Of a stretch of 64,000 nucleotides of DNA, positions 8,017 through 51,041 are shown in pieces. Positions within the stretch are counted from its first letter, which is position 1. Each line of letters begins with the position of its first letter. Location: positions 5,826-69,825 of the forward strand of contig DAOKZW010000002.1 of the NCBI GenBank assembly GCA_035325445.1. The letters run 5' to 3'. This stretch comes from Flavobacteriales bacterium (GTDB lineage Bacteria; Bacteroidota; Bacteroidia; Flavobacteriales_F; PHOS-HE28). Both the position numbers and the translations under genes were made by a program. The notes under the pieces were generated by a model. It saw only the letters and a list, made by a program, of their open reading frames with translations. It was not told where the DNA came from and searched no databases.

Positions 8017-8028
8017 GCAAGGAGGATC

Positions 8029-15648: not shown

Positions 15649-16109
15649 GCACCGGCAAGCAGATCGCCGTTTTTCCCGGGTCCTTCGACCCGGTGACCAT
15701 CGGGCATGTCAGCATCGTGCAGCGCGCACTCCCCTTGTTCGACAAGGTGGTGGTGGCCATGGGCGAGAACATCACCAAACGCTACATGTTCCCCACGGAA
15801 CAGCGCCTGCGGTGGCTGAAGGAGACATTCGCCGCGGAGCCCAAGGTGGAGGTGATCGCCTTCCAAGGGCTGACGGCCGACCTGTGCCAGGAACTCGGCG
15901 CGCGGTACATCGTGCGCGGCCTGCGCAACAGCACCGACCATGGGACGGAGCGGAGCATCGCACTGATGAACCATGCCCTGCGCGGCGTGGAGACCATCTT
16001 CCTGCCGGCCCTGCCGGAGCATGCGCATATCAGCAGCACCATCGTGCGCGAGCTGCTCGCCAATAAGGCCGACGTTTCCGCGTTCGTTCCTTCTGCGGTA
16101 CGCCCCTGA
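15645..16109 (+). CDS. coaD: phosphopantetheine adenylyltransferase
   Basis: IAVFPGSFDPVTIGHVSIV (HxGH nucleotidyltransferase motif) and C-terminal ISSTIVRE. Overlaps rsmD stop by 4 nt. Confidence 0.9.
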   Translation: MSTGKQIAVFPGSFDPVTIGHVSIVQRALPLFDKVVVAMGENITKRYMFPTEQRLRWLKETFAAEPKVEVIAFQGLTADLCQELGARYIVRGLRNSTDHGTERSIALMNHALRGVETIFLPALPEHAHISSTIVRELLANKADVSAFVPSAVRP

Positions 16110-17626: not shown

Positions 17627-18227
17627 GCACGCGGCGGACCGACGGGTAAGTATCCCGCCACATGGCCTCCACGCCTGCCGCATCCAGCCACTGCACCGCA
17701 TCGATATCCTCTTCGGCCTGGGGCACGAGCGCTTCCGCGGCATGGCCCCGCATGAGGTACCACCGGGTCCGTTTCAGGTGTTGCTCCCCTTGGCGGGCGT
17801 AGGTATGCCACGTATCACACAGGTGCCGCACCACCTCCAGCTGCCGCAGGCCGCACTCCTCCTGCACCTCGCGCACGGCGGCAACATCCAGGGCCTCCCC
17901 GGCCTCCACTTTTCCCTTGGGAAGGTCCCACCGGCCCAGCCGATGGATGGCCAGCAGCCGGCCCGCCTCATCCTCCACGGCGCCACCGGCGGCCTCCACC
18001 GCCCGGAAGCCGTCCTGGAACCACTGCCACAGCTCATCCACCGGCCGGCCGAAGACATGGATGCCCCGCAGCTCCTGCTGCTTGGCCAGTGTCTCCTTGG
18101 CCAAGCGCATCTCCTCCGGGCTTTCCACCCGCAAATACAGCCAGTTGCCCGGTATCTCCCGTAAATTGGGCTCCTCCCCGATGGTGAAGCTCCTGCCGTC
18201 GGTATGGACTTCGTATTTTTGCCGCAT
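17589..18227 (-). CDS. NUDIX hydrolase
   Basis: Nudix box GKVEAGEALDVAAVREVQEECGL. Confidence 0.8.
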   Translation of the reverse strand: MRQKYEVHTDGRSFTIGEEPNLREIPGNWLYLRVESPEEMRLAKETLAKQQELRGIHVFGRPVDELWQWFQDGFRAVEAAGGAVEDEAGRLLAIHRLGRWDLPKGKVEAGEALDVAAVREVQEECGLRQLEVVRHLCDTWHTYARQGEQHLKRTRWYLMRGHAAEALVPQAEEDIDAVQWLDAAGVEAMWRDTYPSVRRVLSAWGQARHARG

Positions 18228-18900
18228 GGATCCCCGCCTCGAACCGGCATTGAAGATCGCCGAATTCCTTCTGCGAATAAAGGCCGTGAGGCTTGAACCT
18301 CAAAACCCGTTCACCTGGGCCAGCGGTTGGAAGAGCCCGATCTATTGCGACAACCGCAAGACGCTGAGCCATCCGGTGATGCGCACGTTCATCCGCCAGC
18401 AGTTCGTGGAAGCCATCCAGGACAAGTTCGGCAAGCCGGACATGATCGCGGGCGTGGCCACGGGCGGCATCGCACATGGTGCCTTGGTGGCCCAGGAACT
18501 GGGGCTTCCCTTCATCTATGTGCGCAGCTCGGCCAAGGGCCACGGCCTGAAGAACATGGTGGAGGGCGACCTTTCACAGGGCCGGAGCGTGGTGGTGGTG
18601 GAGGACCTGGTGAGCACCGGGAAGAGCAGCCTGCAGGCCGTGGCCGCGCTGCGCGAGGAGCAGTGCGAAGTAAAAGGCATGGTGAGCATATTCACATACG
18701 GGCTGAAGGATGCCACGGAAGCCTTTGCCAAGGAGCGCGTGCGCCTCTATGCATTGACGAACTACAACATCCTGCTGAAGCAGGCCATTGCCGACAACTA
18801 CATCACCGAAAAGGACCTGCAGTCCTTGAACAGTTGGCGCGAAAACCCCGCCGAATGGGGCGGCACGGCCGCGGCCACTGCCAGCGGCGCAACAGCATAA
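18226..18900 (+). CDS. pyrE: orotate phosphoribosyltransferase
   Basis: PRPP-binding motif VVVVEDLVSTGKS. The N-terminus MDPRLEPALKIAEF and overall length match PyrE. The track ORF 17917..18900 is an over-extension; ATG at 18226. Confidence 0.85.
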   Translation: MDPRLEPALKIAEFLLRIKAVRLEPQNPFTWASGWKSPIYCDNRKTLSHPVMRTFIRQQFVEAIQDKFGKPDMIAGVATGGIAHGALVAQELGLPFIYVRSSAKGHGLKNMVEGDLSQGRSVVVVEDLVSTGKSSLQAVAALREEQCEVKGMVSIFTYGLKDATEAFAKERVRLYALTNYNILLKQAIADNYITEKDLQSLNSWRENPAEWGGTAAATASGATA

Positions 18901-37865: not shown

Positions 37866-38058
37866 GATTGGTTGGCAGGTGGCAGGTGGCAGTCCGCCTT
37901 CGCCCTTCGGGCTATGGCGGGACGAAGTTGGCAGGTGGCAGAGGGCAGGTGCAGTTGGCAGGTGCAGAGGGCAGGTGCAGTTGGCAGGTGGCAGAGGGCA
38001 GTTGCAGTTGGCAGGGTAGCGGAGTGCCCTAACAACTAACAACTGACAACTGACAACC
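37866..38058. repeat. complex intergenic repeat: TTGGCAGGTGGCAG copies, three ~27-bp units (TTGGCAGGTGGCAGAGGGCAGGTGCAG), then (CAACTRA) x4, forming an imperfect long inverted repeat
   Basis: Read directly in the 237-bp divergent region between the DUF488 gene and the ABC-F gene. Words GCAGTTGGCAG and ACAACTGACA recur at 51095-51165. Confidence 0.8.
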
Positions 38059-38088: not shown

Positions 38089-39957
38089 ATGAACTGCCTT
38101 TCCGTGGAGCGCATCAGCAAGCGCTATGGCCCCCGCCTGCTTTTCGAGAACATCTCCTTCGGGCTGGAGAAAGGCCAGAAAACGGCCATCGTGGCGCGCA
38201 ACGGCACCGGCAAGAGCACGCTGCTGAAGTGCATCGCCGGGGTGGAGAAGCCGGACGAGGGCATCATCACCTTCAACAAGGGCCTGCGCGTGGGCTACCT
38301 GGACCAGAACGTGGAGATGACCGCCACGCACTCGCTGGTGGACGAGATGCTGGACCGCGACGACCCGGTGTCGAACGCCATCCGCACCTACGAGCACTTG
38401 TCGGCCAAGGGAAGCCAAGGACCCGAACTGGAGGCCGCCATTGCGCGCATCACCGAGCTGGGCGCATGGGACCACGAGGCCCGCATCAAGCGGCTGCTGT
38501 TCCAGTTCGGCCTGCGCGACCTGGAGCAGCCCGTGAACACCCTCAGCGGCGGCCAGCAGAAGCGGGTGGCCATGGCCAAGGTGCTCATCGACATGCCCGA
38601 CGTGCTGATCCTGGACGAGCCCACCAACCACCTCGACCTGCACATGATCGAGCAGCTCGAGGAGGAACTGTCGGCACCGAACGTCACGCTCCTGCTGGTC
38701 ACCCACGACCGCTGGTTCCTGGACAACGTGTGCGACGAGATCATCGAGATGGAGTTCGGCTCCTTCACGCGATTCAAGGGCAACTACAGCTACTACGTGG
38801 AAAAGAAGGCCCTGCTGGAGGAAGTGCGCGATGCCACCCAGCAGCACCTGCGCGGACTGGCCCGCAAGGAATTGGAGTGGGTGCGAAAGATGCCCCGCGC
38901 ACGCGGCACCAAAAGCAAAAGCCGCCTGCAGGCCTACGACACGCTGAAGGACCTCGCCGGCCGCAGCTACGACCAGGAGCAGGTGAGCCTCGACATCAAA
39001 ACCACCCGCCTGGGCGGCAAGGTGATCGAGACGCGCAACCTTACCAAGAGCTTCGGCGACAAGAAGATCGTGGAGCACTTCAACTACTCCATCAAGGCCG
39101 GCGACCGCATCGGCGTGGTGGGGCCCAACGGCATCGGCAAGAGCACCTTCATCGACCTGCTCACACGCAAAACAGAGCCCGACGCCGGCAAGGTCACCAT
39201 CGGCGATACCGTGGTGCTCGGCATCTTCGGACAGCAGGGCCTGCAACTGAAGGATGACAAGCGCATCATCGAGGTGGTGCGCGACATCGCCGAGGCCATA
39301 CCACTCAGCAAGGGACGCACCCTCACCGCCGCGCAGCTTTTGGAGCGCTTCCTCTTCGACAAGGAACAGCAATACCAGTACGTGAGCACCCTCAGCGGTG
39401 GCGAGAAGCGCCGCCTCTACCTGTGCACCGTGCTGATGAAAAACCCCAACGTGCTGGTGCTGGACGAGCCCACCAACGACCTCGACATCGCCACGCTCAA
39501 CGCACTGGAGGACTTCCTCACGGACCTCGACATCTGCCTGCTCATCGTCAGCCACGACCGCTTCTTCATGGACAAGCTCTGCACCAAGCTGCTGGTGTTC
39601 GAGGGCGACGGCGTGATCAAGGAATGGGTACACACCTACACCGAGCTGCGCGAGTGGCAGAAGGAGCAGGAACGTGCGGCGAAAGAGGCGCGGGAGAAGG
39701 AGGCCAGGAAGGAGAAGGAAGTCAAGAAGGGCGCGCCGTCGGGCAAGCTCACCTACGCCGAACGCATAGAGCTGCGCAAGATCGACCAGCAGCTGCCCAA
39801 GCTGGAGCAAAAGAAAACCGAGCTGCTCGCCGAGATGGCCGAAAAGGCCGCCGACCACCACGCCGTGATGGAACTCTCGATCCAGCTGGAGAAGACGACT
39901 TCGGAGCTGGAGCGATTGGGGGATCGATGGCTGGAGCTGAGCGAGAAGGGAGAGTGA
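38089..39957 (+). CDS. ABC-F family ATPase (tandem ABC domains, no TM)
   Basis: Two nucleotide-binding domains: ARNGTGKSTLLK / LSGGQQKRVAMAKVL / LILDEPTNHLD and GPNGIGKSTFIDLL / LSGGEKRRLYLCTVL / LVLDEPTNDLD. Charged coiled-coil C-terminal extension. Confidence 0.9.
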   Translation: MNCLSVERISKRYGPRLLFENISFGLEKGQKTAIVARNGTGKSTLLKCIAGVEKPDEGIITFNKGLRVGYLDQNVEMTATHSLVDEMLDRDDPVSNAIRTYEHLSAKGSQGPELEAAIARITELGAWDHEARIKRLLFQFGLRDLEQPVNTLSGGQQKRVAMAKVLIDMPDVLILDEPTNHLDLHMIEQLEEELSAPNVTLLLVTHDRWFLDNVCDEIIEMEFGSFTRFKGNYSYYVEKKALLEEVRDATQQHLRGLARKELEWVRKMPRARGTKSKSRLQAYDTLKDLAGRSYDQEQVSLDIKTTRLGGKVIETRNLTKSFGDKKIVEHFNYSIKAGDRIGVVGPNGIGKSTFIDLLTRKTEPDAGKVTIGDTVVLGIFGQQGLQLKDDKRIIEVVRDIAEAIPLSKGRTLTAAQLLERFLFDKEQQYQYVSTLSGGEKRRLYLCTVLMKNPNVLVLDEPTNDLDIATLNALEDFLTDLDICLLIVSHDRFFMDKLCTKLLVFEGDGVIKEWVHTYTELREWQKEQERAAKEAREKEARKEKEVKKGAPSGKLTYAERIELRKIDQQLPKLEQKKTELLAEMAEKAADHHAVMELSIQLEKTTSELERLGDRWLELSEKGE

Positions 39958-40045: not shown

Positions 40046-40318
40046 TCATTGTTCCCACTCCCCCAAATGCGCCCGCATCAGGCTCTTGAAGAGCTTGCCA
40101 TGGTTCGGGACGCGCAGGTGTAGCAGTTCATGCACGATCACATAGTCCTGGAACTTGAGGGGTTTATGCAGGAGTTCGCTATTGAAATTCAAGTGGCCTT
40201 TCGTGGAGCAGCTGGCCCACTTGTGGCGCATAGGGCGGATGCCCAGCCACACCACCTCCACACCGATCTTCTCCGACCAGTCACGGACGCGTTGCTTGAA
40301 GGCGGCCTTGGCGTCCAT
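40046..40318 (-). CDS. YgjP-like metal-dependent hydrolase (DUF45), unusually short (90 aa)
   Basis: HEXXH motif in YVIVHELLHLRVPNHG preceded by WASCSTKGHLNFNSELL, the conserved C-terminal half of DUF45. ATG shares one nucleotide with the hsdR stop at 40318. Missing about 100 N-terminal residues relative to typical family members. Confidence 0.6.
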   Translation of the reverse strand: MDAKAAFKQRVRDWSEKIGVEVVWLGIRPMRHKWASCSTKGHLNFNSELLHKPLKFQDYVIVHELLHLRVPNHGKLFKSLMRAHLGEWEQ

Positions 40319-43300
40319 CAGATGCGGTCTGCTTTCTCCAGCAACGTGAATAACTCATCCACCAGCCGCGCCACCAGTATTTCGTCGTCCACCTGGCCGT
40401 AAATGGCGAAGGTGACCTTGGAGCGCAGCTCGCGCAGTTCTTTCTCACTGGTCTTCCAGTGCGGGAAGGCCACGAAGGCGTCCTTGATCTTGCGGCTCAC
40501 CGTCTCGCTTTCGGGCACCTGGGCATCCAGCAGGGTGCGGTACACGAAGTAGGTAAGCCCATCGAAGCCCTTCTCGGCCTGCTCCCGTTTGCGGTCCTCA
40601 TTTTGTTGCACGAGGCGTAGCAGATCATCCAGCGCCTCTTTCGTATCGGACTGGCGGCTTTCGAAGCTCTCCTGCACCGCCTTGGCGCGTTCGGCCATGG
40701 CGATCAGGAAGGGGTCGTCGCTTTCGGACTCGGCCTTCTTCTCGATGCTCTTGACCAAGTTGATCACCTTGGTACCGTCACCCGCATTCTTCTGCTTGAT
40801 CAGCTCGATGGTGCGCTCGTTGATCTCCACCAGCTCCAGCGGCGCGTTCACGTTGTAGGTGCCCACGTGTTCCTGCACCAGGCTGTTCGTCTTGCGCTGG
40901 AACTCCCGGTCCACCTCCACACGCTTGGTGTAGGCCTTGCGCACCACGTCGTAGATGGCGCTCAGCGTGGCATAGGGCTCGATGTAGGGGCGCAGGAAGG
41001 CATCGGGGCTGATGATCTCATACAGCATCTCCACTTCCTTGTACGCCTTGAAGAACTCCTTGCGGCGTTCCGGGTCGCGGAAGTGCTCGATCAGCGTGTC
41101 CACGTCGCGGTCGTCGAAGCGGCCGCCCACCAGCGCCAGGTAGGCGGGTACCTTCTGCTCCATCTTGTTCTTGAACAGACCCTTCAGCAGGGCGATGTCC
41201 TTCACGATGGCATTGACCTCGTCACTATCAAAGGCCAGCGCTTTCTCCAACTTGTCGAAGATGCCCACGAAGTCCAGCACGAAGCCGTGGGGCTTCACCA
41301 TCTCGGCCTGCTCGTTCTCATACGGACGGTTCACCCGGGCGATGGCCTGCAGCAGTGTGTGGTCGCGCATGGGCTTGTCCAGGTACATGGCGTAAAGCAG
41401 CGGCGCATCGTAGCCGGTGAGCAGCTTCTCGGTGACGATGAGGATCTTGGGCTGCTGGTCCAGTTTGGTGAAGGCCTTGCGGATCTGCCGCTCCTTCTTC
41501 TCGTCCAGGTGGAATTCCTTCAGCGCGGCGCTGTCGTTGTTGTTGCCGGTGTACACTACGGCGCTGTACTCGGGCGGCAGGTACTTGTCCAGCGCGTGCT
41601 TGTACAGGGCGCAGGCCTCGCGGTCCACGCCTACGAGGAAGGCCTTGTAGCCGAGCGGCTCCACGTTCTCGGTGTAGTGCTTCGCCACGAACTCGGCCAC
41701 CTTGGGGATGCGCTCCCTGCCCTTCAGGAAGTTCTTCAGGTTCACGGCGCGGTCCAGCACCTTGTTCAGGTGCTCGATGTCCGCCAGGCCCTCGGCCTCG
41801 GCCAGCGAGAGGAACTCCTTGTCCAGCGTTTCGTGCGGCACCAGCAGCTCGTTCGGCGCCAGGTTGTAGTACAGCGGCAATGTGGTGCCGTCGCTGATGC
41901 TGTCGGCGATGCTGTACTTGTGCAGGTAGCCTTTGTCGTCCTCCCCGCCGAAGGTCTTGAAGGTGCCACGTCCGTAGGCGGTCTTGTCGATGGGTGTGCC
42001 GGTGAAGCCGATGTAACTCGCGTTCGGCAATCCGGCCATGAGGAAGTTGCCCAGGTCGCCGCCGGTGGTGCGGTGCGCCTCGTCGATCAGCACGTAGATG
42101 TTCTTCCGCGTGTTGATGTTTGCCGGCATGTCGCGGAACTTGTGCACCATGCACACGATGATGCCGCGGTAGTCGTCCTTCAGCAGCTTGTTCAGCCGGG
42201 CGATGCTCTCGGCGTGCTCGATGTTGCCCAGGCCCAGCGCCGCGAGGTTCTTCAGCATCTGGTCCTCCAGCTCGTTGCGGTCGATCATCAGCAGCACCGT
42301 GGGCTTGTCCGCCTCGGGGGCCTTGAAGAGCAGCTCGGCGGCCTTGATCATGGTGAAGGTCTTGCCGCTGCCCTGCGTGTGCCACACCAGCCCGCGCCGC
42401 CGTTGCGGGTCCAGCGCGCGGTGCACCACGCGCTCCACGGCCGTGGTCTGGTGCTGGCGCAGGATGTACTTGTTCAGCTCCTCATCCTTCTCGGCGAAGA
42501 CAATGAAGTCCTTCAGCAGGGCCAGCACCTGGGGGATGGCGCAGAAGCTTTTCACCTTGGCCTCCAGTCGGCCGGGGGTGTAGGATGGCGGACCTCCTGG
42601 TCCGCCCGAGATCCCGGTGCTATGCGGCGGACCGGGAGGTCCGCCTTCCGTCAATGCGTCCTTCTCGTAGAGCAGGTACTCACCCTCCTTCAGCCCGCTC
42701 TTCACCGGATTGTTGCGGATGTAATCACACACCTGCTCAAAGTGGTCCTCGTTGCGGATCAGCCGGTCCCAGTACTCGTCCATCCAAAGCGAACCGGTCT
42801 TACCCAGGCGCTTATTCACTTCACGTGCGCTGAAGCCCTTCCATGACTTCACGATCTCACCGATCGTGTGGCCGTTCAGCGGGCGGAACAGCACATGCAC
42901 GTGGTTCGGCATCACCACGTAGCTCACGACTTCATAGCGGTCGCCGTCGAAGTGAAGGATCGCATCACCAACAATGCGGGCCAACTCCGGCTTCCGGAAG
43001 GGGCACGAGCCTTTGCCGGCGTCCAGCCACTTGTCCATGCGGCGGCTGAAGCGGTCGAAATGCTCCAGTTCGATGGCTTCGGTCCACGGTTCGGGGTGTT
43101 CGCGCAACCACGCATCGCGCTCGGCTTTCCATTCATCCAAAACTTCACGTGGAAGAGAGTCGCCCATGCGCCACGTCACGGAGCAGTACACGCCGGGTTG
43201 GTGCCAATGCGGTACACGGTGCTCTTTCGGGTTGACGGAGGAGTACGGGTCGAAGAAGGGGCTTTCCGGGATGGCGGACATTCCTGGGACGGCGGACATT

Positions 43301-44091
43301 CCTGTCCGCCCAGTGCTCCGTGGCGGACTGGAAAGTCCGCCTTCCTCCCCCCGTAGGATTTTCCACTCGAAGATGTTGCGGTACACCGTATTCCAGGTCA
43401 CCCCGTACTTGAAGCCGATGGCATCGGTGGCGGTGAAGAGCTGCTGGGGCACCATTACCTCGGGCGTTTCGCGGTGGTAGCGCCGGATCTGGTCGATGCC
43501 CAGGGCGATGCCCTCGTCCTTGGTGGCGTTCTTGCACTCCACCACCAGCACGGGGATGCCGTTGATGAGGAAGACCACATCCTGCCGCGTGCTGTGGTGG
43601 CCGTTGTGCGTTACCCACTCCTCGGTGACCTCGTAGATATTCCTGTCGGATGGCGGACTTTCTTGTCCGCCCGAGACTCCGGCCACACCCGTGCTCACGC
43701 GCGGACTGGAAAGTCCGCGTTCCAAGACCGCACCGTAATCGATGAGCACCAGGTCGCGCTCGCGGTCCTCTTCGTGGTCGAAGAACTTGCCTTGGTTGCG
43801 CAGGTACTGGAGGAACTCGCGGTTGCCGTAGATGTCCGTGTGCAGGTGGCGCAAGCGGCCCGGCAGGGCACCGGGAGCCTCGGTGTAGCGCGGGTTGAAG
43901 CGCCGCACCTGCGCATCCAGCACCTCTTCGAAATAGAGGCTGGCACCCCTGGCCCGTTCACTGCCCGTAGCGGCGGCGTTGAAACCCCGGCGCCGCTCGG
44001 CGGTTTCGCGCGGCACCACGGCCCAGCCCACCTCCTTGGCGTAGGCCAGGATGCGCGCTTGAACGGTCTTGTGTTCGCCGGGGGTGGGCAT
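40318..44091 (-). CDS. hsdR: type I restriction enzyme R subunit (HsdR) carrying three in-frame REP insertions and an in-frame RayT-like transposase domain
   Basis: N-terminal PD-(D/E)xK nuclease (DVVFLINGIPVLVVECK), helicase motif I HTQGSGKTFTM, DEAH-type LIDEAHR, motif VI region, C-terminal helical domain. The 1257-aa ORF is continuous. About 290 extra residues (aa 251-510) plus a 25-aa insert at aa 126-150 are not HsdR-like. Confidence 0.85.
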   Translation of the reverse strand: MPTPGEHKTVQARILAYAKEVGWAVVPRETAERRRGFNAAATGSERARGASLYFEEVLDAQVRRFNPRYTEAPGALPGRLRHLHTDIYGNREFLQYLRNQGKFFDHEEDRERDLVLIDYGAVLERGLSSPRVSTGVAGVSGGQESPPSDRNIYEVTEEWVTHNGHHSTRQDVVFLINGIPVLVVECKNATKDEGIALGIDQIRRYHRETPEVMVPQQLFTATDAIGFKYGVTWNTVYRNIFEWKILRGEEGGLSSPPRSTGRTGMSAVPGMSAIPESPFFDPYSSVNPKEHRVPHWHQPGVYCSVTWRMGDSLPREVLDEWKAERDAWLREHPEPWTEAIELEHFDRFSRRMDKWLDAGKGSCPFRKPELARIVGDAILHFDGDRYEVVSYVVMPNHVHVLFRPLNGHTIGEIVKSWKGFSAREVNKRLGKTGSLWMDEYWDRLIRNEDHFEQVCDYIRNNPVKSGLKEGEYLLYEKDALTEGGPPGPPHSTGISGGPGGPPSYTPGRLEAKVKSFCAIPQVLALLKDFIVFAEKDEELNKYILRQHQTTAVERVVHRALDPQRRRGLVWHTQGSGKTFTMIKAAELLFKAPEADKPTVLLMIDRNELEDQMLKNLAALGLGNIEHAESIARLNKLLKDDYRGIIVCMVHKFRDMPANINTRKNIYVLIDEAHRTTGGDLGNFLMAGLPNASYIGFTGTPIDKTAYGRGTFKTFGGEDDKGYLHKYSIADSISDGTTLPLYYNLAPNELLVPHETLDKEFLSLAEAEGLADIEHLNKVLDRAVNLKNFLKGRERIPKVAEFVAKHYTENVEPLGYKAFLVGVDREACALYKHALDKYLPPEYSAVVYTGNNNDSAALKEFHLDEKKERQIRKAFTKLDQQPKILIVTEKLLTGYDAPLLYAMYLDKPMRDHTLLQAIARVNRPYENEQAEMVKPHGFVLDFVGIFDKLEKALAFDSDEVNAIVKDIALLKGLFKNKMEQKVPAYLALVGGRFDDRDVDTLIEHFRDPERRKEFFKAYKEVEMLYEIISPDAFLRPYIEPYATLSAIYDVVRKAYTKRVEVDREFQRKTNSLVQEHVGTYNVNAPLELVEINERTIELIKQKNAGDGTKVINLVKSIEKKAESESDDPFLIAMAERAKAVQESFESRQSDTKEALDDLLRLVQQNEDRKREQAEKGFDGLTYFVYRTLLDAQVPESETVSRKIKDAFVAFPHWKTSEKELRELRSKVTFAIYGQVDDEILVARLVDELFTLLEKADRI
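42587..42645. repeat. REP-like palindromic doublet (inside hsdR, in-frame)
   Basis: GGCGGACCTCCTGGTCCGCC ... GGCGGACCGGGAGGTCCGCC: two perfect 8-bp-stem hairpins 19 nt apart. Confidence 0.75.
42646..43260 (-). mobile_element. RayT / IS200-like Y1 HUH tyrosine transposase domain, in-frame inside hsdR, flanked by REP doublets
   Basis: Residues about 278-482 of the hsdR ORF. HUH motif VVMPNHVHVLF and catalytic-Tyr helix FEQVCDYIRNNPVKSGL. No homology to HsdR. Confidence 0.6.
43273..43341. repeat. REP-like palindromic element (inside hsdR, in-frame)
   Basis: GGCGGACATTCCTGGGAC GGCGGACATTCCTGTCCGCC cagtgctccgt GGCGGACTGGAAAGTCCGCC. Translates as SSPPRSTGRTGMSAVPGMSAIPESP. Confidence 0.75.
43652..43718. 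repeat. REP-like palindromic doublet (inside hsdR nuclease domain, in-frame)
   Basis: GGCGGACTTTCTTGTCCGCC ... GCGGACTGGAAAGTCCGC. Translates as LSSPRVSTGVAGVSGGQESPPSDR. Confidence 0.7.
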
Positions 44092-44094
44092 GGT

Positions 44095-46029
44095 TTATAC
44101 TGTCGGCCAATCTTCAGGTACCAGCTTAAGACCACCGCGCCAACGTTCGCGTATAGTGTCCTGGTACCAATTCTCCTGGAACTCGGCGTGCTCCGTCATG
44201 ATAACTTGAAGCCCCGGTGCCACTTCCTGAACAAGGTCATAGATCAGCTTGAACATCCTTTTCAAGTCCTCCCTATCATCGCCTTTTAGCTCAACCACGT
44301 TGTCTCTTGAAACATCTGGTGGGAAGTACACCTGTGAAGGCTGGTCCAGAAAAAGGAAATGAGGAACAGGACGACGTTGCATTGTAAACCACTTGTGAAG
44401 GGCAAGGTGGCCTATTAAATGATAACCTACCCAGTTCTCACCACTGCCCATCTTGTCCATTGTAATCGCTCCATTGGAAGTTGCCGCAAACACCGTGAGT
44501 TTGTTCACATTTAGGCGTAAGGGATACTTTGAATGTTCGAGCTCCAACCTCTTCGCCCAGATGGACATGTCTTCCGCCAGGATGGAGACGATTGATTCAA
44601 GCCGCTCCTTGATGTCCTCGTCCGACAACTTCTCCTCAAACTCTGCAACTTCAAGCTGCAGGAGCTTCGATTGTCTTTCCAGGTCTAGTGTATTGGGTAA
44701 GTCGGGCAAACTTTCCAAGTACAGACTGATGCGACCAAGGATCAGAGCCCGGAGCGATACATCGTCGCGTAATTGCTTGAGCTTCTCATCAGCCTGAACA
44801 ACCGCGGCCATCGACTCTCGATTCTTACGCAAACTCTCATTCAAGCCGCTAATCTTCGATTGAGTCTCTGCGATAGACTTCTCTACCTGAGGTAGGTTAC
44901 GTTGTACTCTATTCAGTTGGTCAGCCACCTTAGAAATGGAGTCAGTGATGCTCGTGGCGATGGGCAGGTTAGACGTATCCGCCAAACCTTGCTCACACAA
45001 CGGACAGACGTGCGCTTCACCCTGGCTCAATAACCCTATGCTCACCAGCCTTGCCTTCTGTTCCTTAGCCTCTGAAGTGAATCCTACTTCAGCATCCGCA
45101 ATTGATTGAATCGCCGAAAGTTGTGCTTGGAGGTGGCCTCGCTCCGCCAAGAGTCTCTCGCGTTCAGATGCTAGCTTCTCGTACTCGCCGGCATCCGTGC
45201 CCTTGGCGTCTAGCACCGACACACTGGCCTGGCTTGCTTTATGCAGATGTGCAACGAGTTCGTTCCAGTCAGAAGTATCCGGGGCTTGGCTCAAGCCAGC
45301 CTCCCGAGCTTGCGCTAGCAGCGAAGCGGCTTTGCCGATTCCTTCGCCGCGAATTGACCGTAGCTCGTTCAGCTTCCTCTCAATCGAGCGGAGTTCACCC
45401 TTTAACATTCGAAGCCGCTCTTGATTTGCGACATAATCATCGCTCACTGCGCCTAAAAAGAAGGGCAGTGTATCCTTGAGGGCTTGTGCCTTGAAGGAGT
45501 CGTTCGCCTTGTAGAAGAGCTGCTCCGGTTGATTGATCACATACTGTGGTTGAAAACACAGCATTAAAGCGTGGCGCACGGTAGCGGCAACAGGCAATCG
45601 TGTGTGGCCCGCATCAGGAACGTGAATATTCTCCTTTACACCAGTCCATCCTGTCACTATTGAGATTAGGCCCTCCTTGTTTGTATTCGAGATTAGGTCT
45701 TCGAACGCCGGGATAGCGATCTCTCGGCCAATTGCAACGTAACACTCCTCCGAGTAGTCTCCGTCCACCCGCGGCGCTTTGCGGGCAATGAAGGCTTCCC
45801 CGTCATCTAGCTTGAGCCGCAAACCGAACCATGAAACGGCGGAGCGAATAATACCATAAGGCACCTTGCATTTGCCACTACCCATGCAGAAGTCAACAAT
45901 TGATATCAGTGCTGACTTGCCAGTCTTTGAGGCGCCCGTTATGACGTTTACCTCGCCAGGAGTGAATGGGAGCTTACGAACTCGTCCATCATGCGAGTAA
46001 AGCACCAAGTCGTGTATTTGAATGCTCAT
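44095..46029 (-). CDS. SMC/Rad50-like ABC ATPase with coiled coil and CxxC zinc hook (DUF3732-like; candidate ABC-3C ATPase)
   Basis: Walker A VITGASKTGKSAL at N-terminus. About 300-aa heptad-rich middle with CPLCEQ hook. C-terminal signature-like MGSGENW, Walker B/D-loop HFLFLDQPSQ, H-loop IMTEHA. Start set at the Met of MSIQIHDL (CAT 46027-46029), overlapping the upstream stop by 4 nt. Confidence 0.7.
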   Translation of the reverse strand: MSIQIHDLVLYSHDGRVRKLPFTPGEVNVITGASKTGKSALISIVDFCMGSGKCKVPYGIIRSAVSWFGLRLKLDDGEAFIARKAPRVDGDYSEECYVAIGREIAIPAFEDLISNTNKEGLISIVTGWTGVKENIHVPDAGHTRLPVAATVRHALMLCFQPQYVINQPEQLFYKANDSFKAQALKDTLPFFLGAVSDDYVANQERLRMLKGELRSIERKLNELRSIRGEGIGKAASLLAQAREAGLSQAPDTSDWNELVAHLHKASQASVSVLDAKGTDAGEYEKLASERERLLAERGHLQAQLSAIQSIADAEVGFTSEAKEQKARLVSIGLLSQGEAHVCPLCEQGLADTSNLPIATSITDSISKVADQLNRVQRNLPQVEKSIAETQSKISGLNESLRKNRESMAAVVQADEKLKQLRDDVSLRALILGRISLYLESLPDLPNTLDLERQSKLLQLEVAEFEEKLSDEDIKERLESIVSILAEDMSIWAKRLELEHSKYPLRLNVNKLTVFAATSNGAITMDKMGSGENWVGYHLIGHLALHKWFTMQRRPVPHFLFLDQPSQVYFPPDVSRDNVVELKGDDREDLKRMFKLIYDLVQEVAPGLQVIMTEHAEFQENWYQDTIRERWRGGLKLVPEDWPTV

Positions 46030-46538
46030 GGTCTCATCCCCAGAAGGGCATATGTTGTTTCTACTGCACCGGCTCGCATGAGCCACCGACCAAGGAACTC
46101 CGCCTTCTTCATACACTCAGCCACCTCATCGGACATATCGCCACTGGCTCGATTGAACACCACCCTATACTTCGCGTTGGGCACAATCACCTCACCTTCG
46201 ATTTGAAATAGACCACTGTTCGATCCGTAGAGGAGCGCTTCCTTCGCGTAAGGAACCAGCTGCAGAGTTCTGAAGGGCAATCCTGCAACCAGCAATGGGT
46301 TGCTCTCTACCCAGGTCGGTATGGATGATCTTACGTTGGTTGGAAGCGACTCTCGCGTCTTCTGATGCAAGATTAGTGGGAGCAAGAGAAAGGCCTCCAA
46401 GTAGTGCAATGCGGTACGTTTTCCCTTAGGATTCTTAAGCGCATCCGTCGCCGCATGCCAGATGATGAAGGCACAGAACCCAGGGTTGAGCAGGAACCGC
46501 TCTTCATGAGGCCGTTGATTCCAAGGCTGCAACGGCAT
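46026..46538 (-). CDS. small hypothetical protein; candidate middle component of a tripartite ABC-3C-like module
   Basis: 170 aa, no recognisable motif. Wedged between the upstream stop (2-nt gap) and the downstream ATPase start (4-nt overlap). Confidence 0.45.
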   Translation of the reverse strand: MPLQPWNQRPHEERFLLNPGFCAFIIWHAATDALKNPKGKRTALHYLEAFLLLPLILHQKTRESLPTNVRSSIPTWVESNPLLVAGLPFRTLQLVPYAKEALLYGSNSGLFQIEGEVIVPNAKYRVVFNRASGDMSDEVAECMKKAEFLGRWLMRAGAVETTYALLGMRP

Positions 46539-46540
46539 AG

Positions 46541-47740
46541 TCAGCTAAGGATTGAAGCCAAGCGGTCCTTGAACTCTGGATGCCAACCGATCCTCATGTC
46601 GTTCGCCAAAATGTGCAATGAGCCACGGGTAATGAACCCATCATGCACGCCGGGTCTTATCCGAGAGTTTTGATTGCCCTGTTCCGCCCATGCCAGCAGA
46701 TCGCTAGCCGCACGCTTCTTCACTTCTTCAGTGGCGCCTGTACCCAGGGTGTCCTCCATCTGGTGGAATACAGCCTCCCATTCCTCAATCAAGGCCCGCT
46801 CATATACGGTAAGGTCGGCTACAAAGAGCAGGTCTTGGCGCAGCCACCTTGAACGCTGTTCAAAGGCTCTGAAATAGTCACGTATTGCTGCACGCAAACG
46901 CTTTGAATGAGAAGTTGCAAGTTCAACTTGCTTAACAAAGGGCAAGCTCTTGTGCGCCTCCGCGGTATCCGTATCAAGTTCAAAGTTCAGCAGGTCATCA
47001 GCAACAGGCAATGAGTCCTGGCGGAATCGATCGCGAACTTCAGTCACCTGCGCTTCAATTTCCTCGGACAGTATTCTACTACTTAACGAAGTGTCCAAGA
47101 GTTGCTGGATAACACGCCTAAACCACCAGCCTTCCAGATACTCAACGAACGTTTCACGATTGTTCTTCCCTGCAGCATAGTGCACTTCTGCCGCAAGAAG
47201 AGAATTGACGCCTTCGATGTCAGGCGCTTGGTCAATGACAAGTACTCGCTCAAGTAGCTCACGGCACTGGCTTGGTTTCCATGCCTTATAGGCGGCGTAT
47301 GCGCTCTCGTTCGTCGCGCTCTCCGAAGTTTGAGCCACGGCCAAAAGTCCCTTCATCGCGCCCTCAACATCTCTGTCTTTCGTTTTCAGCTTTCCTGCAA
47401 TAGAAGCGGCCTGTGCTGTCTCAGAGGTCACGAGGAAGAGCATCGTGTCCTTAGCTAGCTTTCCAGCATTAGTTAGCTCAATCCAAATACGCAGCGTTTT
47501 CCAAAGATCACTGGAGCTGTTCATAAGATTTCCCTTACGGTTCAAATGATGCTTGGTCTGTAGCAGATCCGTTGGCGTGCCAAGCTTCTCGAAAGCAACG
47601 TCATCGAGTGTCTCCACTGAGACACTGAATATTTCGCTGTTCTTCAACCGCTGAAGGCTCCACAACAGTGCACACCGAACCTGGTATAGGTAGCCCAATG
47701 CAGATTCTGCGGCTGAGAATTGCGCTGTTGTATCGGTCAT
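46541..47740 (-). CDS. hypothetical protein; candidate effector with N-terminal restriction-endonuclease-like (Cap4/DUF4297-type) region
   Basis: N-terminus ESALGYLYQVRCALLWSL ... VSVETLDDVAFEK ... LLQTKHH resembles the G-Y-x-Y-Q start and D / (E,Q)xK pattern of PD-(D/E)xK-type Cap4 nuclease domains. ATG overlaps the hsdS stop (ATGA). Confidence 0.45.
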   Translation of the reverse strand: MTDTTAQFSAAESALGYLYQVRCALLWSLQRLKNSEIFSVSVETLDDVAFEKLGTPTDLLQTKHHLNRKGNLMNSSSDLWKTLRIWIELTNAGKLAKDTMLFLVTSETAQAASIAGKLKTKDRDVEGAMKGLLAVAQTSESATNESAYAAYKAWKPSQCRELLERVLVIDQAPDIEGVNSLLAAEVHYAAGKNNRETFVEYLEGWWFRRVIQQLLDTSLSSRILSEEIEAQVTEVRDRFRQDSLPVADDLLNFELDTDTAEAHKSLPFVKQVELATSHSKRLRAAIRDYFRAFEQRSRWLRQDLLFVADLTVYERALIEEWEAVFHQMEDTLGTGATEEVKKRAASDLLAWAEQGNQNSRIRPGVHDGFITRGSLHILANDMRIGWHPEFKDRLASILS

Positions 47741-49017
47741 GCTCGTACTGATGTGTAGTACGTGACTTCTTTAGGAACCCTCACCTTCCCCGTCATCAGC
47801 TCATGAAGCAGGGTGCGGAAGAGGTCTTGGAGTGACGTGAGTTTCGTTCGGTGGTGTTCGCCCTTGCGTTCAATCGCAAGCAAAGCATCTGTGATGCCAT
47901 TCTGCACATCAAGCCCAGGAAGTGGTAGTGGCATACTCCTCACATCGGCCACATTGAGATGGGCTACCGTGAGGCCACTGGCGATCGACTTCATGTGCTT
48001 GCTCAGTACCGGACTGTAGAAGCTGTAGACGAGGAACTCTGGACTAAGCCTAGATCGGTCTGTGCGTATCAGCATGGTTCGTTGCCCCAAGCTGAGTCGC
48101 ATGCCTTCCGGAATGACGCATGCTTCACCTACCGGAGCCTCGCGACTGAACAGAACATCACCTGGTTCGGGCACGGCGCGCCGAACACGATCACGATACT
48201 GCTCCTCGCTCGTGAAGAAGGCTGGTTCCGGCACGAAACGACCATCGCGGATGTTGAAGTTCCGGGCGACGCGTACCCCAGTGGTCAGGAACTTCGGCGT
48301 GGTATGCGGGCAATCGATGACCAGTTCACACACTGACTGCAAAGGCACCACCTCCCAACTCTCCGGCACCAACCCGATCTCGGTCTCCTTCTGGGCTTCG
48401 CCGCGCAGCCCTTCGGTGAAGAGCTTTTGCATCAGGGCCTGCTTCAGCTCGGTGGTGGTGCGGATCAGGCGCTCCTGCTGTTCGATGGCCGATTGCACCG
48501 TGCTGAGCACTTGGGCGATGCGCTGCTGTTCGGCAAGCGGTGGCAGTGGGAGTTCAGACCCGAACACGTCGGATTCACGCACCGCCGGATATCCTGCGCC
48601 ACGTTCCAATCCTGCCATACGTGCTATGAAGCCATCCGTAAGGAGGAATGAGTAGAGGTACCGGGGATCAACCTTGCTCCGGTCGCTCCGAAGCACGCAA
48701 TAGCCTGTGCTAGCGATCTGGCCATCCAGCTTCTCCGGTACTAGCGCCACACGCCTAAGCGTAGGACGGACAGTTGCGAAGAGCACATCGTCCCGGCGTA
48801 TCTCTTTCCGCGCACGGCTCGGCGCATCTTTCCCTACTAGAGAAGCTGACTCTGTGATCTTGAACGATTCATTGGATACGCTGGAAACATCCACATACGC
48901 GAAGCGCTCATGAGGTGCTTTGCGCGGGTCCCGTTGCTTCGCCTTGAGCACTAGGTTCCCGATGCGCTCGCGGCGCCAACCTTGGGGCAAGTCGTATGGA
49001 AGTTCATCCTCCATCAT
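47737..49017 (-). CDS. hsdS: type I restriction-modification specificity subunit HsdS
   Basis: Two target-recognition domains separated by the conserved central helix LPPLAEQQRIAQVL and the C-terminal helix LQDLFRTLLHELMTGKVRV. Start overlaps the hsdM stop (ATGA). Confidence 0.85.
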   Translation of the reverse strand: MMEDELPYDLPQGWRRERIGNLVLKAKQRDPRKAPHERFAYVDVSSVSNESFKITESASLVGKDAPSRARKEIRRDDVLFATVRPTLRRVALVPEKLDGQIASTGYCVLRSDRSKVDPRYLYSFLLTDGFIARMAGLERGAGYPAVRESDVFGSELPLPPLAEQQRIAQVLSTVQSAIEQQERLIRTTTELKQALMQKLFTEGLRGEAQKETEIGLVPESWEVVPLQSVCELVIDCPHTTPKFLTTGVRVARNFNIRDGRFVPEPAFFTSEEQYRDRVRRAVPEPGDVLFSREAPVGEACVIPEGMRLSLGQRTMLIRTDRSRLSPEFLVYSFYSPVLSKHMKSIASGLTVAHLNVADVRSMPLPLPGLDVQNGITDALLAIERKGEHHRTKLTSLQDLFRTLLHELMTGKVRVPKEVTYYTSVRA

Positions 49018-51041
49018 GCCAACTGCTTCAAGATCTTCTTCAGCGCCGCATCCGTTTCCCGCGCCTCGGCCTCAATGGCCTCCAGTTCCTGCACCAGCTC
49101 GGGGATGGGCCGGTAGCTGGTGGCCTCGCCGGTGTGGATGTAGCGGCTGGGCGAGAGGTTGTAGTCGCTCAGTTCGGCCAGTGGCACAATGCGGCTGAGC
49201 TTCTCCTCCTCCTTCCACCCGAGCATCACGTCCGCAATGCGGTCAATGTGCTCGGGCGCCAGGAAGTTCTTGGGCTTGCCCTTCTCGAAGAGCTGGCCGG
49301 CGTTCACCAGCAGCACCTTGCCCTGGCGGGCTGCCGGCTTGGCCCTGCGCAGGAAGAGCACGATGCCCGGCGCGGTGGTGTTGTAGAAGAGGTTGTCCGG
49401 CAGGTAGAGCACGCTCTCCACCAGGTCGTTATCCACGAACCACTTGCGTACCTCGCGCTCCTTGCTGTGGCCATCGTTGCCGCTGCCGCGGCTGGCGGCG
49501 CCGGTATCCAGCACCACGGCGGCGCGGCCGGTCGGCTTCAGGCTAGAGAAGATGTGCTGCGCCCAGCCCCAGTCCGCACTGGCCTTTCCGGGGAAGCCCG
49601 CGCCGGTGGGGAAGCGGTCCAGCTCGTCGTTGGCGTAATCGGCCTCGGTGAACCAATCCTGGTTCCACATGGGGTTGGCCACCACGCGGTCGAAGGTCTT
49701 CAGCCGCCCACGCTCGCGGAACTTGGGGTTCTTGAAGGTGTCGCCGATCTCGATCTGGCCCTGCATGTCATGGATGATCATGTTCATGTTGGCCATGGCC
49801 CAGGTCTCGGCGATGTATTCCTGGCCGTAGAGGCGGAGGGGCGCGTACTTCGGCATGGCAGGCATTCCTGGGCCGGCGGACATTCCTGGGCCGGCGGACA
49901 TTCCTGGGTCGGCGGACATTCCTGTCCGCCCGGTACCGTGTGGCGGACTGAAAAGTCCGCCTACCGAATATGTGGTGCCGCCATCCTTCATGCGCGCCTC
50001 CAATGCGATCTCGCATTTGATCAGCAGGCCGCCGCTGCCGCAGCAGGGGTCGTACACCTCCATGCCGGGCTCGCATTCCAGCACGCGGGCCATCACCTCG
50101 CCCACTTCGCCGGGGGTGTAGAACTCGCCCGCGCTCTGCCCGCCGCCCTCGGCGAACTTGCGGATGAGGTACTCGTAGCTCTTGCCGATGATGTCGGCCT
50201 CCACATCGTTGAGGCCAAGGCGCTTGGTGCTGATGGCCTCGATGAGGTTGCTGAGGCGGTCGTCGGCCAGGTCGCGCTGGCCGTGGGTAGTGGCGTTGAA
50301 GTCCACGCGGTCGATGATGCCCTGCAGCAGCGGGTTGGCCTTGGCCACTTCGCGCAGGTGGGTGGTGAGCTGCTCGCCGATCTTGTCGCTGAGGGTGCGG
50401 ACCACGCTCCACACGGGCTGCTCGGGGTCGGCGGGTTCCAGCGGCAGGTAGAAGCGCACGAGCTTCCTATCGGCTTTTACCAGCCGGAAGGCCTTGGCGC
50501 GGGATCCCACCTCGGCGGCGATGCGGTCCAGCTCATCATCGAACACGTCGCACAGCCGCTTGGTGAAGATGAGCGGCAGGATGTAGTCCTTGTATTTGGG
50601 GGCATCCTTGGCGCCCCGGATGGAGCAGGCGGCATCCCAGATCCAGGTCTCGAGGGATTTGTCGGGGGTGGGCTTGGCAGCCTTCTTCGGGCGGCCGGTC
50701 TTGGTTTTTTCGGCGGGGTCGGGGTCGGTCTTCGCGGACCGGGAGGTCCGCGGGCTCGGTTTGTGGGCGACTTCCTTATCCCCGTCCTGCGCGGACCGGG
50801 AGGTCCGCGGACCGGAGGCTTCCTTTTCCGCGGTCTGCGAGGACCGCGGACCGAGTTTGATGCTGCCGCCTCGCCCGCGCCCGAGGGCGATGGCGCCTTC
50901 GGCGAGGAGCTCGGCTTTTAAGCTTTCGTAGGTGGGCTCGTCCACATCCAGCAGCTCGCGGGCCTTTCCATTACCCAAGCTGGGCGTTTCAGCCAGTAGG
51001 GCGAGCAGGGCTTCCTTGCGGTTGGTATTCTCTTCGGTCAT
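49014..51041 (-). CDS. hsdM: type I restriction-modification N6-adenine DNA methyltransferase HsdM carrying two in-frame REP insertions
   Basis: Motif I VYDPCCGSGGLLIK, FYTPGEVGEVMARVL, motif IV variant VVANPMWNQ, C-terminal HsdM helical region. Continuous 675-aa ORF. Inserts are GGLFSPPHGTGRTGMSADPGMSAGPGMSAGPGMPAMP and the N-terminal region EKEASGPRTSRSAQ ... SPRTSRSAKTDPDP. Confidence 0.85.
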   Translation of the reverse strand: MTEENTNRKEALLALLAETPSLGNGKARELLDVDEPTYESLKAELLAEGAIALGRGRGGSIKLGPRSSQTAEKEASGPRTSRSAQDGDKEVAHKPSPRTSRSAKTDPDPAEKTKTGRPKKAAKPTPDKSLETWIWDAACSIRGAKDAPKYKDYILPLIFTKRLCDVFDDELDRIAAEVGSRAKAFRLVKADRKLVRFYLPLEPADPEQPVWSVVRTLSDKIGEQLTTHLREVAKANPLLQGIIDRVDFNATTHGQRDLADDRLSNLIEAISTKRLGLNDVEADIIGKSYEYLIRKFAEGGGQSAGEFYTPGEVGEVMARVLECEPGMEVYDPCCGSGGLLIKCEIALEARMKDGGTTYSVGGLFSPPHGTGRTGMSADPGMSAGPGMSAGPGMPAMPKYAPLRLYGQEYIAETWAMANMNMIIHDMQGQIEIGDTFKNPKFRERGRLKTFDRVVANPMWNQDWFTEADYANDELDRFPTGAGFPGKASADWGWAQHIFSSLKPTGRAAVVLDTGAASRGSGNDGHSKEREVRKWFVDNDLVESVLYLPDNLFYNTTAPGIVLFLRRAKPAARQGKVLLVNAGQLFEKGKPKNFLAPEHIDRIADVMLGWKEEEKLSRIVPLAELSDYNLSPSRYIHTGEATSYRPIPELVQELEAIEAEARETDAALKKILKQLA
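49855..49961. repeat. REP-like element (inside hsdM, in-frame): 3.5 x 18-bp GGCGGACATTCCTGGGCC units plus two hairpins
   Basis: ggcggacattcctgggcc x3, GGCGGACATTCCTGTCCGCC, GGCGGACTGAAAAGTCCGCC. Same family as the hsdR copies. Confidence 0.8.
50734..50846. repeat. REP-like triple hairpin (inside hsdM 5' region, in-frame)
   Basis: GCGGACCGGGAGGTCCGC at 50734-50751 and 50791-50808, GCGGTCTGCGAGGACCGC at 50829-50846. Confidence 0.7.

Follow-up and report, generated by a model that had tools for sequence, protein, structure and literature searches.

A probable type II Lamassu cassette nested in a type I restriction-modification operon of a Flavobacteriales bacterium

Three tightly packed genes on the minus strand of a 64,000-nucleotide stretch of DNA from a Flavobacteriales bacterium (GenBank assembly GCA_035325445.1, contig DAOKZW010000002.1, positions 5,826 to 69,825; from here: the window) interrupt a type I restriction-modification (R-M) operon between hsdS and hsdR. 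They raise the question of which system they encode and whether this system is a partner or a passenger of the operon. An earlier note, written from the letters of the sequence, had proposed the architecture of an ABC-three component (ABC-3C) system, consisting of an effector, a middle component and a coiled-coil ATP-binding cassette (ABC) ATPase. Profile searches against Pfam and PADLOC bore this out. We assign the cassette, with a probability of about 0.88, to the type II Lamassu systems, the ‘short’ variant with a Cap4 nuclease and a hook-bearing ATPase, in the gene order lmuA-lmuC-lmuB. This assignment is identical with ABC-3C, as ABC-3C and type II Lamassu/DdmABC have been recognized as one system (10.1101/2025.06.23.660979). 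It is based on the Pfam families CTD7, MC3 and DUF3732, the PADLOC models LmuA, LmuC and LmuB, relatives with solved structures, the ranking of fold matches, and the conservation of gene order and functional residues.

The cassette and its three proteins

According to the list of open reading frames (ORFs) and inspection of the sequence, lmuA, lmuC and lmuB are three co-directional, stop-free ORFs reaching from 47740 to 44095 on the minus strand (Table 1). Two nucleotides separate lmuA from lmuC, whereas lmuC and lmuB overlap by 4 nt (ATGA), and the ATG start codon of lmuA overlaps the stop codon of hsdS in the same way (ATGA). The three-gene cassette delineated before was found intact and tightly packed, with each quoted motif in its place. 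For lmuB, the first start in the ORF list is a GTG at 46116, which would yield 673 aa. This is probably not the real start; the ATG at 46029, yielding 644 aa, is favored because it overlaps the lmuC stop codon, because the gene was independently called with 644 aa on an identical contig, and because the PADLOC LmuB profile matches from residue 1. The alignments with Salmonella LmuB and with the PADLOC profile both begin at residues 1–3 of the 644-aa product. The order lmuA-lmuC-lmuB is retained in nearly all of 80 related genome loci.

All three proteins match chains of Lamassu entries obtained by cryo-electron microscopy (cryo-EM) in 2025–2026. Structures were reported for the LmuACB complex of Salmonella enterica (PDB 9hqu, 9hqx and 9hr5; 10.1101/2025.03.14.643221) and for Vibrio cholerae DdmABC, also called Lamassu Vc-Cap4 (PDB 9nxx, 9ny1, 9ny5, 9nyg and 9uxh-9uxl; 10.1101/2025.04.02.646746, 10.1101/2025.06.23.660979). 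The earlier remark that ABC-3C systems lack experimental characterization is therefore outdated, as cryo-EM structures and biochemistry exist for both organisms.

The 399-aa effector LmuA matched the PADLOC model LmuA (PDLC03848) over residues 7–394 with E = 2.6e-62. The PDB chains 9nxx_A and 9hqu_C were found with E-values of 2.5e-13 and 4.8e-9 in a sequence search and of 5e-22 and 4.5e-16 in a profile search. The separate C-terminal domain noticed before is present and corresponds to the Pfam family CTD7 (Table 1); it aligned with the C-terminal domains of both chains. The role of this domain was described as sequestration and oligomerization (10.1101/2025.03.14.643221).

The N-terminus of LmuA had been compared to Cap4/DUF4297-type nucleases of the PD-(D/E)xK superfamily, a suggestion that is supported at the level of fold and motif. 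Lysine K63 of the window protein aligns with K57 of V. cholerae LmuA (VcLmuA) and K68 of S. enterica LmuA (SalEnt LmuA), both experimentally mutated catalytic lysines; the exchange of VcLmuA K57 to alanine is contained in PDB entry 9ny1 and serves as the nuclease-dead mutant. Conservation was followed in 30 aligned relatives and in 80 species-level genome loci at 41–58% identity. Residues G16, Y17, Q20, E43, D46, D47, Q61 and K63 were invariant at 80/80 loci and likewise in the 30 relatives. The alignment of the effector N-terminus, which had been proposed as a check on the acidic and lysine residues, thus found them conserved throughout. Moreover, AlphaFold2 modeling from the alignment of 30 sequences predicted the N-terminal domain (about residues 10–240) with a predicted local distance difference test (pLDDT) score of 70–91. 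When this model was compared to the PDB by Foldseek, 15 LmuA chains ranked first (E from 1e-9 to 1e-4), followed by Cap4 nucleases (6wam, 6vm6 and 7yib), which come from A. baumannii, E. cloacae and M. osloensis and gave probabilities of 0.8–1.0 and template modeling (TM) scores of about 0.3 over about 245 columns. Avs3 and DUF4297-HerA ranked below Cap4.

The 170-aa middle protein, which was considered devoid of known motifs before, belongs to a described family. It matched Pfam PF20131, MC3 (‘ABC-3C Middle Component 3’), over its whole length with E = 1.3e-40, PADLOC LmuC with E = 8.8e-11, and the PDB LmuC chains 9uxl_D, 9ny5_C and 9uxh_D with E-values of about 1e-6.

The ATPase LmuB matched PADLOC LmuB (PDLC03859) over residues 1–641 (E = 1.8e-135) and Pfam PF12532, DUF3732, now named LmuB_C (E = 8e-51). 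In the PDB, S. enterica LmuB (9hqu_A; 2.4e-63) and V. cholerae LmuB (VcLmuB; 9ny5_D, 2.9e-59) were both matched over the full length. The Walker A, hook, signature, Walker B and H-loop motifs that had been read from the sequence were all present, and their conservation was confirmed in a sample of 69 homologues: the Walker A lysine K38 occurred in 67/69, while C342-P-x-C345, D562-Q563, the Q-loop residues Q160/Q162, the GS of the signature (S529) and H614 were invariant (69/69). The CPLC motif in the middle of the coiled coil is a predicted zinc hook. Across the Lamassu family the CxxC hook is variable, with zero, one or two copies, and the replacement of the Walker B glutamate by glutamine, hhhhD[Q/S/T/E], has been reported as characteristic of LmuB and of ‘short’ Lamassu. 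The residue corresponding to S529, S536 of SalEnt LmuB, mediates head engagement, and the Salmonella system depends for defense on its nuclease and hook as well as on ATP binding and head engagement.

An ATPase with an ABC head, a coiled coil and a CxxC hook could also be a Rad50/SbcC-type protein of DNA repair or chromosome maintenance with unrelated neighbors, and Lamassu was proposed to have evolved from SbcCD. In NCBIfam, which offered no family for LmuA or LmuC, the only matches of LmuB were to Rad50, RecN and an archaeal protein related to structural maintenance of chromosomes (SMC) proteins. These matches are far below threshold, with 14–19 bits for Rad50/RecN against cut-offs of 400–1000 bits, while the LmuB model is matched at about 1e-135. 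In addition, no Mre11/SbcD gene is found nearby, where the neighbors are lmuC, lmuA and the hsd genes; all homologues have glutamine in place of the catalytic Walker B glutamate; and lmuA and lmuC adjoin lmuB in nearly all loci. We therefore regard a repair function of this ATPase as highly improbable.

PrrC and RloC are ABC-ATPase-based abortive-infection modules located between hsd genes, and RloC possesses a CxxC hook. The position of the cassette between hsdS and hsdR and the hook of its ATPase would fit such an anticodon nuclease module, which type I R-M operons classically carry as their ABC-ATPase passenger. Nevertheless, no PrrC or RloC model was matched at E < 0.01 in PADLOC, LmuB stops about 30 residues after the H-loop with no appended domain, and the effector is a separate protein with the predicted fold of a DNA nuclease. 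The probability of an anticodon nuclease module is practically nil, in agreement with the earlier statement that the ATPase lacks an anticodon-nuclease domain and is neither RloC nor PrrC.

Several points weigh against the assignment to type II Lamassu. The identity of LmuA to the solved LmuA proteins is about 18–21% in the structural alignment. The C-terminal domain of the LmuA model reached a pLDDT of 31–58, which precludes a reading of the tetramer interface. When the N-terminal domain was searched alone, its sole Pfam match was Cap4_nuclease (PF14130/DUF4297) over residues 12–82, with 17.5 bits (E = 0.005) at a threshold of 26.2; this segment contains all LmuA motif residues. In addition, the LmuA profile reached no Cap4 chain in a sequence-based search of the PDB. 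The relationship to Cap4 thus rests on fold and motif. Furthermore, scans for promoters and terminators from 39.6 to 51.6 kb stayed at the level of shuffled sequences, where it has to be considered that the sigma-70 consensus may not apply to Bacteroidota. The cassette is probably co-transcribed with the R-M operon and acts independently of it, but co-transcription is deduced solely from overlapping start and stop codons and gene spacing. Family membership of all three proteins, conservation of functional residues, the predicted nuclease fold and the conserved gene order are shown by the present analysis.

Table 1. Features of the Lamassu cassette and its surroundings in the window. Positions are those of the 64,000-nt window; residue numbers (aa) refer to the respective protein.
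Feature	Position	Strand	Description or basis
lmuA	46541..47740	minus	399-aa Lamassu effector: N-terminal Cap4-type PD-(D/E)xK nuclease (supported at fold and motif level) and ABC-3C CTD7
LmuA nuclease domain (about residues 9-240)	47021..47716	minus	AlphaFold2 pLDDT, Foldseek, motif conservation
LmuA GYLYQ (aa 16-20)	47681-47695	minus	motif inspection
LmuA E43/D46/D47, ETLDDV (aa 43-48)	47597-47614	minus	motif inspection
LmuA Q61-x-K63, QTK (aa 61-63)	47552-47560	minus	motif inspection
LmuA C-terminal domain CTD7 (residues 268-393)	46562..46939	minus	Pfam PF20283, E=2.1e-39
lmuC	46026..46538	minus	170-aa middle component
lmuB	44095..46029	minus	644-aa SMC/Rad50-like ABC ATPase; sensor role by homology
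LmuB Walker A GASKTGKS (aa 32-39, K38)	45913..45936	minus	aligns with SalEnt GASRTGKS, K40
LmuB predicted zinc-hook motif CPLC (aa 342-345)	44995..45006	minus	aligns with SalEnt CPMC
LmuB signature MGSGENW (aa 527-533, S529)	44431-44451	minus	S529 aligns with SalEnt S536
LmuB deviant Walker B FLFLDQPSQ (aa 558-566; D562-Q563)	44332-44358	minus	FLFLDQ aligns with SalEnt FLILDQ
LmuB H-loop MTEHA (aa 611-615; H614)		minus	motif inspection
hsdM	49014..51041	minus	Pfam N6_Mtase 6.7e-82, HsdM_N; PADLOC MTase_I
hsdS	47737..49017	minus	Pfam Methylase_S; PADLOC Specificity_I
hsdR (1257 aa)	40318..44091	minus	TIGR00348 1.5e-129; Pfam HSDR_N, SWI2_SNF2, T1R_D3-like, Y1_Tnp
YgjP-like gene (90 aa)	40046..40318	minus	Pfam YgjP-like, profile positions 112-198 of 207; HExxH present
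RAYT/Y1_Tnp module of HsdR (residues ~255-505)	42577-43329	minus	in frame, ~195 aa; RAYT core 42691-42990
REP-like palindromes in hsdR	42583-42649, 43263-43345, 43641-43723		GGCGGAC-N6-GTCCGCC
REP-like palindromes in hsdM	49847-49965		GGCGGAC-N6-GTCCGCC
Second palindrome family in hsdM (residues ~65-105 of 675)	50730-50849		GCGGACCGGGAGGTCCGC, 2-3 copies, in frame
27-nt tandem repeat	37926-38015		3.4 copies, 95% matches, intergenic
ABC-F-type ATPase gene	38089..39957	plus	directly downstream of the 27-nt tandem repeat

Passenger or partner of the restriction-modification operon

The operon comprises seven genes in the order hsdM, hsdS, lmuA, lmuC, lmuB, hsdR and a gene for a YgjP-like protein. 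Its junctions are either ATGA overlaps (hsdM/hsdS, hsdS/lmuA and lmuC/lmuB) or gaps of 2–3 nt, with hsdR starting 3 nt past lmuB. The last gene, encoding a YgjP-like metallopeptidase fragment, overlaps the hsdR stop codon by one base and is present downstream of hsdR also in the related loci L075, L082, L086, L087 and L089.

The cassette differs from its host operon in composition. Its GC content is 0.51–0.53 and the GC content at third codon positions (GC3) 0.54–0.60, compared to a GC3 of 0.87 for both hsdM and hsdR, and the change at lmuB/hsdR is abrupt. The relative L082, with about 87–92% protein identity in the frame and cassette genes except hsdS, shows the same GC3 contrast; therefore, the insertion predates the split of the window and L082 lineages. 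Judged from sequence, the cassette entered the hsdS-hsdR slot by horizontal transfer and is a passenger there. As for the exception, hsdS is only 34% identical to its counterpart at L082:1728-3050 and is conserved only in a central segment of 186 nt and in the last ~110 nt, the pattern that would be expected from a swapping of target-recognition domains. The more distant composites of L075 and L004 (Opitutales) and L002 (Terrimicrobiaceae) show identities of 72–73% for HsdM and 64–70% for HsdR, but of only 46–58% for the Lmu proteins.

The foreign composition (GC3 0.55 versus 0.87) and a promoter scan that identified no promoter could indicate a remnant, decaying or silenced, that has lost its role in defense. 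However, all three ORFs are intact and contain every catalytic and structural motif. The cassette proteins are 88–90% identical to those of L082, with no frameshifts, a level similar to that of the flanking R-M genes. In one of four contigs (L082/L083) the lmuC call is shorter, yet the frame of 170 codons is fully open. A remnant is thus very unlikely, and we consider an intact, acquired Lamassu system the better description.

To what extent the family depends on R-M genes was read from the 80 loci, using 10 kb of neighborhood and the Hsd proteins of the window as sole probes, so that the hsd counts are lower bounds. The cassette was embedded co-directionally in a type I R-M operon at 9/80 loci, involving several hsd families, and hsd genes occurred nearby in another arrangement at six more. 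No type I R-M gene was detected within 10 kb at the remaining 65.

The R-M frame in turn is found without Lamassu. L086, L087 and L089 possess the frame with the same unusual HsdR (see below) and no Lamassu; the cargo consists of RhuM, an SMC_N/AAA_21 protein, AAA_14 and DUF4143 in L086 and of KilA-N and a SEC-C protein in L087, while L089 is interrupted by three integrase genes. These frames rule out an obligate coupling of Lamassu to the unusual HsdR and its operon. Where Lamassu is present, the slot can hold additional genes. A DSR2 gene (PADLOC E = 4e-221) lies beside Lamassu in the hsdS-hsdR slot at L002:5645-9556. The slot of L004 carries a 983-aa ABC ATPase resembling Ppl/AriA/HEC-01, a methyltransferase/specificity fusion and a ClpP-like SDH protease (6796-9747, 13643-16078 and 17397-18401).

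A functional wiring of Lamassu to the R-M system was considered in two forms: LmuB might sense DNA ends made by HsdR, or Lamassu might guard the R-M system against anti-restriction proteins. A precedent for the latter is PrrC with EcoprrI, where PrrC fires when a phage anti-restriction protein disables the R-M complex. The location between hsdS and hsdR with overlapping or nearly abutting start and stop codons speaks for a coupling, as does the recurrence of the composite hsdM-hsdS-lmuACB-hsdR(RAYT)-ygjP in L082-L085, in Opitutales (L004 and L075) and in Terrimicrobiaceae (L002). The nine co-directional loci, which fall into several unrelated hsd families, and the published finding that Lamassu senses DNA ends point in the same direction. 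On the other hand, the 65 loci with no detectable R-M gene indicate that the family works without one, and the Salmonella and Vibrio systems were reported to defend when expressed alone. Moreover, the same frame occurs without Lamassu or with additional cargo, and type I R-M operons are known in general to host unrelated defense genes (10.1101/2024.01.29.577857). A coupling is therefore unlikely. If it did exist, double-strand ends introduced by HsdR into unmodified invader DNA could set off a cascade of restriction followed by suicide, and the composite would persist and spread through Bacteroidota and Verrucomicrobiota as a single defense module.

Lamassu is best seen as an exchangeable passenger in the R-M frame, because the slot holds other cargo, Lamassu-free frames exist, and the embedding of defense genes in operons of type I R-M, BREX and DISARM systems is a general phenomenon (10.1101/2024.01.29.577857). 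A literature search combining Lamassu, hsdS and hsdR yielded no paper on this particular nested arrangement. The locus offers a clean example of a defense system nested in the hsdS-hsdR slot, with a compositional signature of later acquisition.

The composite HsdR protein and its palindromes

The HsdR protein of the operon contains an in-frame module of the Y1_Tnp family, related to the transposases associated with repetitive extragenic palindromes (REP-associated tyrosine transposases, RAYT). This module sits between the HSDR_N nuclease and the SWI2/SNF2 motor domains. It matched Pfam Y1_Tnp with 8e-10 and NCBIfam REP_Tyr_transpos with 7e-21, the latter just below the cut-off. The HUH motif PNHVH and the tyrosine motif YIRNNP are both intact. 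The HsdR::RAYT architecture is common to L082, L075 and L004 (63–87% identity). Many database clusters contain proteins combining HSDR_N and Y1_Tnp, and the insert, when taken by itself, has stand-alone RayT proteins as its homologues. Numerous RayT-like proteins of this stand-alone type, ~200–260 aa in length, are labeled ‘type I restriction enzyme R subunit’ by the Joint Genome Institute (JGI), which is probably an annotation transfer from HsdR::RAYT fusions.

The REP-like palindrome GGCGGAC-N6-GTCCGCC occurs seven times in the 64-kb window, each time within hsdR or hsdM, at 0.07 expected by chance. These palindromes are translated in frame, yielding linkers such as GGLxxPP that flank the RAYT module. 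The run GMSAGPGMSAGP is the in-frame translation of an 18-nt tandem repeat. Relatives possess their own versions of the palindromes at the same positions, e.g. fourfold GGLENPPSV in L004. A second palindrome family is located in an N-terminal extension of HsdM, which comprises ~125 residues ahead of the HsdM_N domain (Table 1).

Rearranged versions of hsdR were also observed. At L089:10001-17129 three successive genes of the phage integrase family divide hsdR behind the RAYT module, while L090 and L091:10001-11419 contain an orphan gene for a 472-aa HSDR_N and Y1_Tnp protein with no R-M genes nearby. Compared to the Lamassu cassette, the combination of HsdR, an in-frame RAYT domain and REP palindromes is the more unusual finding and merits an evaluation of its own.

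Proposed mechanism and comparison with known systems

In Salmonella and Vibrio, one LmuA monomer is sequestered at its C-terminal domain by LmuC and two LmuB proteins with folded coiled coils. The complexes bind DNA ends in vitro, and in vivo the Vibrio complex binds a phage replication origin. The response is modulated by the binding and slow hydrolysis of ATP. Once freed, LmuA assembles into a tetramer; two of its nuclease domains come together, DNA is cut and the infected cell is killed. The idea put forward in the earlier note, a nucleoside triphosphate-driven sensor that licenses a DNA-cleaving effector, was roughly right but incomplete: in the systems studied, DNA ends are the trigger, ATP has only a modulating role, and licensing consists of the release of LmuA followed by tetramerization.

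With high, if not complete, confidence the same mechanism may be assigned to the window system, because every sequence feature needed for these steps is present. Accordingly modeled, two LmuB proteins with folded coiled coils and a CPLC hook, equipped with K38, S529 and the hydrolysis-impaired D562-Q563, would clamp, together with one LmuC, the CTD7 of a single LmuA, and the Cap4-type nuclease domain would be held monomeric and inactive. Once the LmuB heads bind an invader's DNA ends or replication intermediates, a step that ATP would modulate, LmuA would be released and would tetramerize via its C-terminal domain. Two nuclease domains would then pair into an active site (E43, D46/D47, Q61 and K63), and indiscriminate cutting of DNA would abort the infection. 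We infer the A1B2C1 stoichiometry, the trigger, the abortive outcome and a role against phages or plasmids from these studied relatives.

LmuA has at least 1,960 relatives in the databases, and the names given by NCBI to them already include ‘ABC-three component system protein’. Genome contigs were searched with an LmuA alignment, as a search with the single LmuB protein gave no match. The resulting LmuA clade covers 511 species-representative genomes, spanning many phyla of bacteria and including some archaea, and could serve as a comparative set for hook-bearing Cap4-type Lamassu. With about 20% identity to the solved proteins, the window LmuA is, by sequence criteria, a fairly divergent new example of a known system. 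The cassette as a divergent Bacteroidota member of a structurally solved defense family matters little alone; existing PADLOC and Pfam models already recognize it, and defense finders would annotate it automatically.

Among the known systems, PrrC and RloC differ from the cassette, whose DNA-nuclease effector is a protein of its own, accompanied by a middle component, and which possesses no anticodon-nuclease domain. The Cap4 proteins of the cyclic-oligonucleotide-based antiphage signaling system (CBASS; 6wam, 6vm6 and 7yib) and DUF4297-HerA share the nuclease fold of the LmuA N-terminal domain, with Foldseek probabilities of 0.99–1.0 and TM scores of 0.31–0.34 over about 243 columns. Cap4 is activated by cyclic oligonucleotides via its SAVED domain, whereas the window effector has CTD7 and no SAVED domain. 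A CBASS Cap4 system was rejected on this ground, and also because Pfam and PADLOC detected no CD-NTase among the seven operon genes. Type I Lamassu systems (LmuAB, e.g. of Bacillus cellulasensis) have no LmuC gene, unlike the window. With the ABC-3C class of comparative genomics, defined by Pfam families CTD1-n and MC1-n, the window agrees by its matches to CTD7 and MC3, and there is no difference between this class and type II Lamassu.

V. cholerae DdmABC resembles the window system in architecture and in its Cap4-type effector, with which the window LmuA aligned over residues 9–394; its LmuC is the best PDB match of the middle protein. In contrast, the hook was lost from VcLmuB according to the published study, while CPxC is kept in the window LmuB and in all 69 relatives. 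The Salmonella Lamassu system shares with the window the three-gene order, a PD-(D/E)xK/Cap4-like LmuA with a catalytic lysine, and LmuC. The LmuB proteins correspond in K38 and K40, S529 and S536, CPLC and CPMC, and FLFLDQ and FLILDQ (window first). Different from Salmonella, the window LmuA is very divergent (E = 4.8e-9 over two local stretches and about 18% structural identity), the host is represented by a Flavobacteriales metagenome-assembled genome, and the system is nested within a type I R-M operon.

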